A stretch of DNA of 44,690 nucleotides from Candidatus Aenigmatarchaeota archaeon. GTDB lineage: Archaea > Aenigmatarchaeota > Aenigmatarchaeia > PWEA01. Within the stretch, counting starts at the first letter, position 1. Every line of letters starts with the position of its first letter. Where the stretch lies: contig JBKHHH010000001.1 of the NCBI GenBank assembly GCA_046539285.1, positions 1 through 44,690 of the forward strand. Reading direction: 5' to 3'. The position numbers were made by a program, and so were the translations under genes. The notes under the pieces are model-generated. The model searched no databases and was not told the DNA's origin. It saw only the letters and a list, made by a program, of their open reading frames with translations. This document shows positions 1-37,219 of this stretch, in pieces.

Positions 1-144
1 AACGTGGCAAAAATTAGAATAAAGTACGATCCTTCCGAGGAAAATGATAGTGAATACCTGGGGTTAATAGAATCAGTTGAGGATTCCATCAATAGATGTC
101 CGTGGGCTCAGGAAGACTCTGATGTTGCTGAATATAGTACTTAA
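1..144 (+). CDS. 3' end of an unidentified protein-coding gene (partial, runs off window start)
   Basis: Frame 1 is open from base 1 to TAA at 142-144 (...NRCPWAQEDSDVAEYST*). 47 residues, no recognisable family. Confidence 0.3.
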   Translation, partial: NVAKIRIKYDPSEENDSEYLGLIESVEDSINRCPWAQEDSDVAEYST

Positions 145-158
145 TTGGGTTTGTTAAT

Positions 159-401
159 TGGCGCCGGCGGCAGGAGTTTCAGAACCTCTCCCGAAAGAGA
201 CGTCCGTGTATTTTCGTGAACGTTTTTGCCGTCTATGGAAGCAGAGCTTCCAAGTGTTGGGAACTTCGTTCCCAAAATAGGCAAAAAGGTTCTTTTGAAC
301 CTGCGTGGGCGGAAGCCCAGTGGATGTCTCGCTGTCATCCTCGCGTCAACACATCCGCGGACTCGAGTCCACCGCCTTAAACCTGACTCGGCCACACCGG
401 C
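159..401 (-). tRNA. tRNA-Ser(CGA) with two introns (36 nt at 37/38, coords 326-361; 118 nt in the T-loop at about 59/60, coords 176-293)
   Basis: Minus strand reads GCCGGTG-TG-GCC-GAGTCAGGTTTAA-GGC-G-GTGGA-CTCGAG[36]A-TCCAC-TGGGCTTCCGCCCAC-GCAGG-TTCAAA[118]T-CCTGC-CGCCGGC-G-CCA. All four stems pair, the long class II variable arm is present, and CCA is encoded. Confidence 0.85.
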
Positions 402-424
402 GCGTGAAACTATTTTATCGGAGA

Positions 425-435
425 AAATTTATAAG
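425..435 (-). promoter_or_regulatory. TATA-box candidate for tRNA-Ser(CGA)
   Basis: Minus strand CTTATAAATTT is centred about 29 nt upstream of the tRNA 5' end at 401. Confidence 0.4.
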
Positions 436-470
436 TTAAGGTCCTTGAAGAATCATAAAGAGACAACTAT

Positions 471-517
471 CCTGACAAAAAAGAAAAATAAAAAGGAAAG
501 GGCTTTGTTAAAAGCCC
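471..517 (-). terminator. Hairpin plus oligo-T tracts downstream of the lipoprotein gene
   Basis: GGGCTTT/AAAGCCC 7-bp stem (500-517) spans the stop codon. On the minus strand it is followed by TTTCCTTTTTATTTTTCTTTTTTG, and oligo-T is the usual archaeal termination signal. Confidence 0.4.
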
Positions 518-1071
518 GCTGATGGTTCTTCGACTTCTGCGTCTTCAGGCGGAAGGAAAAGGTCGTCGTCGAGGGACGGGTTCAGTTCCATTTCAGCCTC
601 CATGGATTCTTCTCCATAGTTGACATCGTGGGTTCCCTCACCATAGTTTTCTGCCCAGCTTTCGGTGGTTCTGATCATGTCTTCCATACTATCTTTGCCG
701 GCCTGCTCTACAAGGCTTCCTGTGATCTTTGTCCACTTCTCTTCTCCGGCCTGAGTAATGTACATTGCTGTTTCGTCGCTGTTGTATATGACCACATAAT
801 CCTCGCCTGTTGATTCTATTCGCCAGTCGTGATCTTCTGTATCCATGTTTCTAGCTCTAATTCTCATTCCTTTGTCAAATTCTCCTCCTTCGTAACCTAC
901 CCAGGTTGCATCTACGCTTGAGATCTCTGGGGATGTGTTTTCTTCACCGCCGTTTTCAGGAGCCCCATTGGTATCGGTAGGTTCACCGCCCGTGCAACCG
1001 GAGACAACCGTTACAGCAAACAATATGAGAACCAGAACTACGAATCTCGATTTATTCGAGTTTAAATTCAT
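508..1071 (-). CDS. Secreted acidic lipoprotein-like protein, unknown function
   Basis: The ATG at 1071 is preceded by GGAGGTGA; the track's GTG start at 1080 lies inside this SD. N-terminus is MNLNSNKSRFVVLVLILFAVTVVSGC, a signal peptide with a lipobox-like Cys. The remainder is D/E-rich. Confidence 0.6.
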   Translation of the reverse strand: MNLNSNKSRFVVLVLILFAVTVVSGCTGGEPTDTNGAPENGGEENTSPEISSVDATWVGYEGGEFDKGMRIRARNMDTEDHDWRIESTGEDYVVIYNSDETAMYITQAGEEKWTKITGSLVEQAGKDSMEDMIRTTESWAENYGEGTHDVNYGEESMEAEMELNPSLDDDLFLPPEDAEVEEPSAGF

Positions 1072-16056: not shown

Positions 16057-16219
16057 TGGGCTCGACGGGATTTGAACCCGCGACTCCTGGGTTTCTTTCC
16101 TCATCGACATATTGTCTTGGTTCTTTCAACCTTAAATATGAAACAGAGTTTCAATTTTGCGAAACCTGTTTCGCAAATAGTTAAAAGCCCAGTGCTCTGC
16201 CAGACTGAGCTACGAGCCC
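16057..16219 (-). tRNA. tRNA-Lys(TTT) with an 89-nt anticodon-loop intron (about 16093-16181), no encoded CCA
   Basis: Minus strand reads GGGCTCG-TA-GCTCAGTCTGGCAGAGC-A-CTGGG-CTTTTA[89]A-CCCAG-GAGTC-GCGGG-TTCAAAT-CCCGT-CGAGCCC-A. Apart from the anticodon arm, the exons are identical to tRNA-Lys(CTT). Confidence 0.9.
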
Positions 16220-19303: not shown

Positions 19304-19463
19304 TGGTGCGGGGGGCCGGATTCGAACCGACGAAGGCACTAAGCCACAGGATTTCTTATCATCATCCGCACCGGTAAGGTTCGGACCTCATCACTTAAGT
19401 ATCTAAACTTAAGTCCTGCACCTTTAGTCGTATGATTAACTTTGACCGCTTGGTTACCCCCGC
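19304..19463 (-). tRNA. tRNA-Leu(TAA) with two introns (about 18 nt in the D-loop, about 19423-19440; 55 nt at 37/38, 19353-19407), CCA encoded
   Basis: Minus strand reads GCGGGGG-TA-ACC-AAGCGGTCAAA[18]GGT-G-CAGGA-CTTAAG[55]A-TCCTG-TGGCTTAGTGCCTTC-GTCGG-TTCGAAT-CCGGC-CCCCCGC-A-CCA. The first nucleotide overlaps the rpoD TAG stop. Confidence 0.85.
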
Positions 19464-21527: not shown

Positions 21528-21769
21528 TGGCGCCGGGAGAGGGACTTCCAGACCTTTAGATTGCCTAAAGACCCTTTGAACCCCCGTGTGCTTCGCCGCT
21601 GGACATGGTCGTGAGACCAAGCCGTCCTATGACGCACACCGGATCTCTTGTCACGTTTTCATCTACCGGCCGCGCTCTCGCGCTTCAGTATCATTAGATC
21701 CGGTTATTGAAAGGCAGAGCCCTTCAAATCTCAAGTCCGGCGCGTTGGACCTGACTTCGCTATCCCGGC
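21528..21769 (-). tRNA. tRNA-Ser(TGA) with three introns (85 nt at 37/38, 21645-21729; about 37 nt in the variable arm, 21596-21632; 30 nt in the T-loop, 21545-21574), CCA encoded
   Basis: Minus strand reads GCCGGGA-TA-GCG-AAGTCAGGTCCAA-CGC-G-CCGGA-CTTGAG[85]A-TCCGG-TGTGCG[37]CGAAGCACAC-GGGGG-TTCAAA[30]T-CCCTC-TCCCGGC-G-CCA. The exons are near-identical to tRNA-Ser(GGA) at 37082-37219. Confidence 0.85.
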
Positions 21770-37081: not shown

Positions 37082-37219
37082 TGGCGCTGGGGGAGGGATT
37101 TGAACCCCCGCGTGCTTCGCCGCTGGACGTGGTCGGAGACCACGTCTTTCTATGACGCACACCAGCTATTTGGTCAAGTCTCCAAGCTGGCGCGTTGGAC
37201 CAGACTTCGCTACCCCAGC
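37082..37219 (-). tRNA. tRNA-Ser(GGA) with two introns (12 nt in the anticodon loop, about 37168-37179; about 36 nt in the variable arm, about 37120-37155), CCA encoded
   Basis: Minus strand reads GCTGGGG-TA-GCG-AAGTCTGGTCCAA-CGC-G-CCAGC-TTGGAG[12]A-GCTGG-TGTGCG[36]CGAAGCACGC-GGGGG-TTCAAAT-CCCTC-CCCCAGC-G-CCA. Confidence 0.85.

Follow-up and report, generated by a model that had tools for sequence, protein, structure and literature searches.

Archaeal tRNA genes with several introns, and introns at position 59/60, are already known (PMC4090602), and disrupted tRNA genes lie hidden in DPANN lineages (PMC5829648). The archaeal splicing endonuclease needs a motif known as bulge-helix-bulge (BHB), where 4 bp separate two 3-nt bulges (PMC5829648). 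In Pyrobaculum islandicum, tRNA-Pro(UGG) has introns at 25/26, 37/38 and 56/57, and a 2014 review quoted an intron length range of 11-129 nt (PMC4090602). Here we describe a tRNA-Ser(CGA) gene with introns at 37/38 and 59/60, located at the start of a 44,690-nt contig of a Candidatus Aenigmatarchaeota archaeon (JBKHHH010000001.1; the whole of this stretch is called the window below). We consider it likely that the gene is functional and that its host is a halo(alkali)philic member of Candidatus Aenigmatarchaeota; it would have two protein-spliced introns, the one in the T-loop being an expanded member of a mobile or exchangeable family of hairpin introns.

The gene resembles the multi-intron tRNA genes of Thermoproteales and other Crenarchaeota in several respects: BHB introns lie outside the anticodon loop, at a listed position (59/60), canonical and non-canonical introns occur together, and standard tRNA finders miss such genes. 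Unlike the crenarchaeal cases, the host belongs to the DPANN archaea (Aenigmatarchaeota) and appears to come from soda-lake-type metagenomes; among its relatives, a further intron is found in the variable arm and, in one case, a T-loop intron of 265 nt. The T-loop intron of the window, at 118 nt, is close to the upper end of the 2014 range and is not the extreme of its clade (L023, 265 nt).

Two described systems bear on intron movement. A 2010 study, as cited in PMC4090602, found very similar introns at different tRNA positions in Thermoproteales. The introns described here likewise have similar sequences at different positions in tRNAs of different specificity, whereas they belong to another sequence family and another phylum, include a same-site replacement at strain level, and share their core with a virus-like contig. 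In Caldiarchaeum subterraneum, tRNA-Thr(GGU) shows population heterogeneity in intron content, and the gain is linked to a 1.8-kb recombinase-encoding element (PMC3293823). As in that case, we find near-identical genomes that differ in the introns of one tRNA gene; in contrast to it, the difference (L005 versus L019, see below) is a clean swap of ~60 nt for ~50 nt with no element nearby.

A tRNA-Ser(CGA) gene in three exons

The gene is read from the minus strand and consists of three exons and two introns (Table 1). Exon 1 contains the acceptor strand GCCGGUG, U8, G9, the D-arm (GCCG / AGUCAGGUUUAA / GGC), the anticodon stem strand GUGGA and the loop sequence C-U-CGA-G. Exon 2 continues with A38, UCCAC, an intronless variable arm (UGGGC-UUCC-GCCCA), the T stem strand GCAGG and UUCAAA. 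With both introns removed, ARAGORN reports an 89-nt tRNA-Ser(cga) with a normal cloverleaf and a long variable arm, and with intron 2 alone removed it reports tRNA-Ser(cga) with a 36-nt intron. The unspliced gene gives no ARAGORN call and no Rfam match at the gathering threshold or at E ≤ 10; over positions 1-800, Rfam at E ≤ 10 returns only noise (ceN115 and mir-9428, 14 bits each).

For comparison, homologues were collected by one exact-pattern scan with the 5' exon each of GTDB genomes and Joint Genome Institute (JGI) metagenomes, a procedure that misses divergent homologues. With these scans the set grew to 13 distinct intron-bearing tRNA-Ser(CGA) genes and two intronless controls; L007, L018, L023 and L025, with acceptor strand GCUGGGG, form a second clade. 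The spliced tRNA of the window is identical to the intronless tRNA-Ser(CGA) of L020 at 75 of 91 positions and shares with it the anticodon loop CUCGAGA, the T-loop UUCAAAU and the T-arm GCAGGUUCAAAUCCUGC. Both splice junctions match the intronless genes of L020 and L008 exactly. A sequence-only reading of the window had already proposed a tRNA-Ser(CGA) with introns at 37/38 and in the T-loop, and the exact boundaries it gave are borne out by the BHB motifs as well as by homologues and intronless controls. In the nearer clade, syntenic genes have a AATTCTTATAG-like box, (A)AATTCTTATA(G/A), at the same upstream distance as the TATA-like box of the window.

The 118-nt intron is embedded in a complete BHB motif. 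The outer helix is the T stem GCAGG/CCUGC (5 bp; 304..300 with 174..170), and the central helix is formed by four Watson-Crick pairs between UUCA (U54-A57; 299..296) and UGAA (181..178). AA^A (295..293) and AC^U (177..175) form the bulges, and GAACCU (292..287) pairs with AGGUUC (187..182) to give an inner helix of 6 bp. With flanking helices on both sides, the motif has the strict helix-bulge-helix-bulge-helix (hBHBh') form. A cut after the second nucleotide of each bulge leads to exactly ...UUCAAA + U-CCUGC, and the unconstrained minimum-free-energy fold of the whole 243-nt precursor contains the motif. The closing helix AGAACC/GGUUCU of the sequence-only reading is present, except that its outermost pair, A293-U181, lies outside the splicing-competent fold, where A293 is a bulge nucleotide and U181 pairs with A57. 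In the 36-nt intron, CUCG (positions 32-35; 367..364) pairs with CGAG (331..328) between bulges AG^U (363..361) and AC^A (327..325); with the anticodon stem outside and an imperfect inner helix, this motif has the relaxed form.

Both motifs are maintained among the relatives. In a trimmed alignment of 12 introns, 86.5% of the cells of the T-loop BHB are paired in register, against at most 55% in slid registers. In the second clade A57-U gives way to G57-C. Of the seven inner-helix pairs, five are changed on both sides, and six pairs of the motif in total show changes on both sides among the 12 sequences. The BHB of the 37/38 intron shows a compensatory difference as well (C32-G versus U32-A in relatives).

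By what is established for archaea, transcription would begin at the TATA-box promoter and EndA would cleave the 3-nt bulges of the two BHB motifs. RtcB would then ligate the three exons to an 86-nt tRNA-Ser(CGA) with its encoded CCA, and the freed introns would most likely be circularised and then degraded.

Table 1. Features of the tRNA-Ser(CGA) locus; positions are those of the window, written in the direction of the minus strand or as ranges
Feature	Position	Strand	Description
Whole tRNA-Ser(CGA) gene	159..401	-	243 nt unspliced, 89 nt spliced including encoded CCA (161..159)
TATA-like box TTATAAAT	427..434	-	~30 nt upstream of the tRNA 5' end
Exon 1, 40 nt	401..362	-	Acceptor 5' strand, D-arm, anticodon stem 5' strand (372..368), loop up to G37 (CUCGAG end)
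Anticodon CGA	365..363	-	In exon 1
Intron 1, 36 nt, position 37/38	361..326	-	BHB; ARAGORN i(41,36)
Conserved motif GGAUGUGUUGA	356..346	-	In 37/38 intron
Conserved motif GGAUGACAG	340..332	-	In 37/38 intron
Exon 2, 32 nt	325..294	-	A38, anticodon stem 3' strand, variable arm, T stem 5' strand, T-loop U54-A59 (UUCAAA end)
Intron 2, 118 nt, position 59/60	293..176	-	In T-loop; canonical hBHBh' motif
AGAACCUUUUU	293..283	-	With AAAAACGUUCACGAAAA, the type-A scaffold common to other introns
Lineage-specific insertion	231..279	-	Inside the UUUUUGCC/GGCAAAAA stem (287..280 with 230..223); absent from all homologues
Perfect hairpin GGGAAC-GAA-GUUCCC	273..259	-	Within the 231..279 insertion
Perfect hairpin GGAAGC-UCU-GCUUCC	251..237	-	Within the 231..279 insertion
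Conserved core block AAAAACGUUCACGAAAA	211..227	-	From alignment and nhmmer
Lineage-specific hairpin UCUC-UUUCGG-GAGA	187..200	-	3' part of intron 2
Exon 3, 17 nt	175..159	-	U60, T stem CCUGC, acceptor 3' strand CGCCGGC, discriminator G73, CCA

A family of T-loop introns and its possible mobility

An intron of 37-265 nt at 59/60 is present in twelve syntenic or homologous genes (Table 2). In the alignment, the window intron is built on a scaffold of ~60 nt, AGAACCUUUUU ... AAAAACGUUCACGAAAA ... GGUUC-UGAA-AC, which it shares with L005, L012, L022 and L014 and which we call type A. A variable hairpin separates AGAACCUUUUU from AAAAACGUUCACGAAAA in this scaffold. Two insertions into it are found in the window, one of ~50 nt with the two perfect hairpins and one of ~15-17 nt that includes the 14-nt UCUC-UUUCGG-GAGA hairpin.

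Two of the relatives, L005 (11544-11773) and L019 (7710-7930), lie on contigs that are 98-100% identical in every 200-nt bin over 5.5 kb. Their tRNA exons, 37/38 introns and variable-arm introns are identical, and the T-loop intron alone differs: L005 has a type-A intron (62 nt), whereas L019 has an intron of unrelated sequence (type B, 53 nt), the exchange lying exactly between the splice sites. The type-B T-loop intron is also found in L009 and L013.

The type-A core is not confined to tRNA-Ser. It occurs in a D-loop intron of tRNA-Val(GAC) at ~20/21 (L002 14654-14780, plus strand, the same as L011 7178-7304; nhmmer E = 1e-10), a position set by hand from the D-loop consensus, deletion followed by ARAGORN being too permissive. 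A tRNA-Leu-like gene from the second clade (L018 5510..5238, minus strand) likewise has it in a D-loop intron; there the match is weaker (nhmmer E = 0.15; by eye, 8 nt plus 19 of 21 nt). This tRNA-Leu-like gene is in four pieces, with introns in the D-loop, in the anticodon loop and at 59/60. From the different positions in different tRNA genes and from the strain-level swap, the intron family appears to be mobile or exchangeable.

A gapped-pattern scan of IMG/VR gave one match, at 818-848 of L026 (IMGVR_UViG_3300022916_000054). There, AGAACCTTTTT-AGG-AAAAACGTTCACGAAAA is identical to the two blocks of the window intron (a 17-mer and an 11-mer) at 28 of 28 nt. This copy is a hairpin in a 47-nt convergent spacer; a stop codon immediately precedes it, T6 follows it, and no tRNA is near. 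By our own rough estimate, made with an assumed size of IMG/VR and not computed by a tool, the search pattern alone would give about one chance match; the L026 match rests on six further matching bases, and we treat it as a lead. Pfam searches with seven open reading frames (ORFs) of L026, a contig with acidic proteins, gave nothing informative. The uninterrupted 3' half of the present tRNA, a possible attP site (TTCAAATCCTGCCGCCGGCGC), has no match in viral contigs, so that there is no direct support for an intron that blocks an integrase target.

These observations raise the possibility, which we regard as tentative, that the type-A scaffold (GAAC-C-UUUUU / loop / AAAAA-C-GUUC, then ACGAAAA) is an autonomous mobile hairpin element. 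It would be a sequence-specifically recognised module that inserts into tRNA loops and spreads between them, possibly carried by viruses, with the core as recognition site for mobility or processing and the window copy having gained hairpins as cargo. The same core at 59/60 of tRNA-Ser and in the D-loops of tRNA-Val and the tRNA-Leu-like gene, in different genomes and clades, argues for such an element, as do the 28-nt identity in a non-tRNA intergenic spacer and the intron swap between strains. There is also a precedent for intron transposition in the Thermoproteales (Fujishima 2010, as cited in PMC4090602). On the other hand, the viral match is a single one where about one chance match to the pattern is expected by the rough estimate, and the matching blocks are low in complexity and rich in A/T. 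Neither a transposase nor an integrase lies nearby, no mechanism is known, and the swap could equally be due to homologous recombination between lineages. If the element were mobile, this Aenigmatarchaeota clade would be a live system for the gain, movement and exchange of archaeal BHB introns, with strain-level swaps, three host tRNAs and a viral copy. In either case, the comparative data bear on the movement of protein-spliced introns, a process without an accepted mechanism. We also considered an origin of the intron 3' end by target-site duplication (GGUUC..AAA versus T-loop GGUUCAAA); this was dropped, as the D-loop copies are complementary to their target and not duplicated from it.

The preferred reading, a functional tRNA gene whose T-loop intron belongs to an exchangeable family, has to be weighed against some observations of its own. 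Conservation of AAAAACGUUCACGAAAA extends over two clades, over different tRNA hosts and to a virus-like contig; this goes beyond what the BHB requires and could reflect a sequence-specific function or a recognition site. A T5 run within the T-loop intron (window 283-287, minus strand) might terminate archaeal transcription early. Finally, there is no close relative (the nearest ThiI is ~55% identical), and the window-specific hairpins may still be conserved within the genus.

The T-loop intron as an RNA of its own

The sequence-only reading had stressed the structure of the 118-nt intron and suggested that, once excised, it could persist as a stable, possibly circular non-coding RNA with its own function. 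We rate this as unlikely. The hairpins on which the idea was built are all present (UUUUGCC/GGCAAAA, GGGAAC-GAA-GUUCCC, GGAAGC-UCU-GCUUCC and UCUC-UUUCGG-GAGA) and perfect, and the predicted fold is very stable (-43.5 kcal/mol, z = -5.55, none of 200 shuffles as stable). Blocks of 17 and 11 nt are conserved in several introns and a viral contig, and archaeal introns are known to circularise (PMC4536317).

Nevertheless, only the BHB and the closing helix have support from covariation. Given the full type-A alignment, RNAalifold retains the T stem and the closing helix alone and gives no interior structure, and the four hairpins are unique to the window genome, being missing from every homologue. 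The outcome that the sequence-only reading had named as refuting it, a block unconserved in relatives, is half present: the ends and a core of ~28 nt are kept in relatives, whereas the structured interior is not. Neither the window nor the fetched loci contain a further copy of the window-specific inserts and hairpins, and no copy of the intron or its hairpins beyond the homologous introns was found in the window and ~250 kb of related loci by a 3-mismatch pattern, blastn-short and nhmmer.

Relatives have between 0 and 265 nt at this site: L025 lacks the intron, that of L015 has 37 nt, and in strains that are ~99% identical an unrelated intron takes its place. In general, non-canonical introns in this gene are strongly self-structured (z = -1.5 to -7.6). 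Structural constraint appears to be restricted to the BHB and the closing helix, with an interior that accepts insertions, and the tight folding probably just stops a long insert from disturbing formation of the BHB and the tRNA body. The 118-nt intron has no Rfam match, and inspection showed neither box C/D nor H/ACA architecture in it; it has no C box, and its only CUGA (182..179) overlaps the BHB. The comparative data do not support an independent function, although the unexpected conservation of the 17-nt block leaves it some probability; a new structured functional RNA finds no support either.

Circularisation would be nothing special to this intron. PMC4536317, citing Salgia 2003 and Danan 2012, presents it as a generic fate of archaeal BHB introns. 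As for other archaeal circular introns and the tRNA intronic circular RNAs (tricRNAs) of metazoa (PMC4536317), the 118-nt intron would be expected to become circular through cleavage at the BHB and subsequent ligation by RtcB, probably the fate that the general archaeal pathway gives it. In contrast to known tricRNAs, any stability or function of such a circle is speculation.

It is very improbable that the locus is a decaying tRNA pseudogene with junk insertions, or a small ORF (84 aa, 141..395, minus strand): standard tRNA finders do miss the gene, ORFs overlap it and a gene caller placed one over the homologous region in L004, but the exons, the two BHBs and the promoter box are all intact and are conserved, as is their syntenic position, the helices are kept up by compensatory changes, and no conserved reading frame is compatible with the length differences among homologues (37-265 nt). 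Spurious ORFs, 54-98 aa long, overlap the tRNA gene at 141-395 (minus strand), 216-380 (plus strand) and 226-522 (plus strand) of the window. In L004, the called 85-aa product (2571-2828) lies directly downstream of the small ORF next to ThiI, at the place taken by the tRNA in L002 and L005, where L004 may have its tRNA as well.

The anticodon-loop intron, relatives and other interrupted tRNA genes

The 37/38 intron is present in all intron-bearing homologues, while the other intron content varies. The 37/38 introns are unstructured (z near 0) yet the most conserved in sequence. In the nearer clade, the near-invariant motifs GGAU(G/A)U(G/A)(U/C)UGA and GAUGA(A/C)AG(C/A)GA(A/G)AC are separated by 6-10 variable nt. 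The succession of (U/C)UGA and GAUGA has the order and spacing of a box D'/C' kink-loop (K-loop), and GGAUGU is complementary to AC|AUCC, that is, to positions 38-41 together with the 3' splice junction. The window's tRNA-Ser(UGA) paralogue has CCGGAU in the corresponding intron opposite AUCCGG of the exon, a covariation between paralogues. Our guess is that the 37/38 intron may form a putative L7Ae-binding K-loop.

The archaeal pre-tRNA-Trp intron, which nests a box C/D guide for Cm34/Um39 (PMC4090602, PMC7994747), offers a comparison. Like it, the introns described here are long and conserved, and the 37/38 intron of the window has (U/C)UGA and GAUGA boxes and a short complement to positions 38-41; unlike it, the T-loop intron of the window lacks a C box and a kink-turn (K-turn). 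Box C/D small RNAs (sRNAs) are defined by terminal boxes C (RUGAUGA) and D (CUGA), internal C'/D' boxes and guides of 10-12 nt (PMC7994747). The 36-nt intron has at most one C'/D'-like pair, UUGA...GAUGA. A box C/D sRNA was rejected for it, since there is no terminal C/D pair, the complement is 6 nt instead of 10-12 nt, and the register is not the same in the second clade. A role as methylation guide was not adopted either: in the nearer clade U39 is the partner of the fifth nucleotide upstream of UUGA, but in the second clade the register points to A42, and the complement is only 5-6 nt.

Table 2. Intron lengths (nt) in tRNA-Ser(CGA) genes; variable-arm values include the native loop of ~4-7 nt
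Gene	37/38	Variable arm	59/60
Window	36	none	118
L002 (=L011)	36	44	52
L005	38	45	62
L019	38	45	53
L009 (=L016)	40	42	51
L012	38	42	62
L022	38	43	62
L013 (=L017)	37	40	51
L014	36	44	49
L015	40	41	37
L007	55	44	83
L018	76	none	69
L023	65	79	265
L025	37	44	none

A third intron, in the variable-arm loop, has ~36-41 nt (~75 nt in L023) and is found in L002, L005, L009, L012-L015, L019, L022, L007, L023 and L025. Its ends, GUUAAGGAC...GUCGGUCGACUAG, are conserved in one subgroup; the window gene and L018 lack this intron. The longest gene is that of L023 (203-696, plus strand), with 494 nt, three introns and a 265-nt T-loop intron that exceeds the 11-129 nt range and contains two tandem copies, ~40 nt each, of GCTTCCAG(A/G)GAAGCTTTTCCTCAACGCAAAAGCTT. 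Another tRNA with a 59/60 insert lies at ~1480-1510 of L023.

The gene order RNA polymerase - NusA - ... - CTP synthase - ThiI - small ORF - tRNA-Ser is conserved, and the same tRNA-Ser gene sits in the syntenic intergenic spacers of L002 and L005, where ARAGORN misses both copies. The best named relatives of the neighbouring ThiI come from metagenome-assembled genomes (MAGs) of Candidatus Aenigmatarchaeota (53-56% identity), none in the database being closer. Two other contigs with the ThiI of the window stop short of the tRNA; no further strain of the window organism that covers the tRNA was found, and a 190-aa neighbour has no database record. The window contig is seen in SRR19844286/7, from the source community. 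Titled records of the genome scan are Aenigmatarchaeota MAGs named T1Sed10_*, B1Sed10_* and D1M06_*, L007 being an 'uncultured archaeon'; these taxon names come from the MAG titles. We read a soda-lake origin from the isolate names, in keeping with the acidic proteome.

Interrupted genes are the rule in the window: six of its seven tRNA genes, hidden ones included, are interrupted. Non-canonical introns hide three genes of these 44.7 kb, tRNA-Ser(CGA), tRNA-Ser(UGA) and tRNA-Leu(UAA), from ARAGORN and Rfam. The window is thus a concrete case of why tRNA sets of DPANN archaea look incomplete and of how gene callers put false ORFs over such genes, and it adds Aenigmatarchaeota to the groups in which tRNAs have two or three introns, with introns in the T-loop.

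The hidden tRNA-Ser(UGA) gene (21528-21769, minus strand), missed by ARAGORN and Rfam, has apparently three introns: one of ~83 nt at 37/38 with box-like AUGAUAC, CUGA, AGAUGA and GUGA sequences, one in the variable arm, and a 30-nt hairpin at 59/60. The last has the central helix UUCA/UGGA and the bulge AG^U. The hidden tRNA-Leu(UAA)-like gene (19304-19463, minus strand; acceptor GCGGGGG/CCCCCGC, CCA encoded) is also missed by both programs. It has a D-loop insert and a long 37/38 intron with GUGAUGA and GGAUGAUGA, a possible box C/D guide. Two further genes are found by Rfam only, with large unaligned inserts: tRNA-Ser(GGA) (37085-37219, minus strand), with a short 37/38 intron and a variable-arm insert of ~49 nt, and a second tRNA-Lys gene (16057-16219, minus strand) with a 90-nt intron in the anticodon loop.

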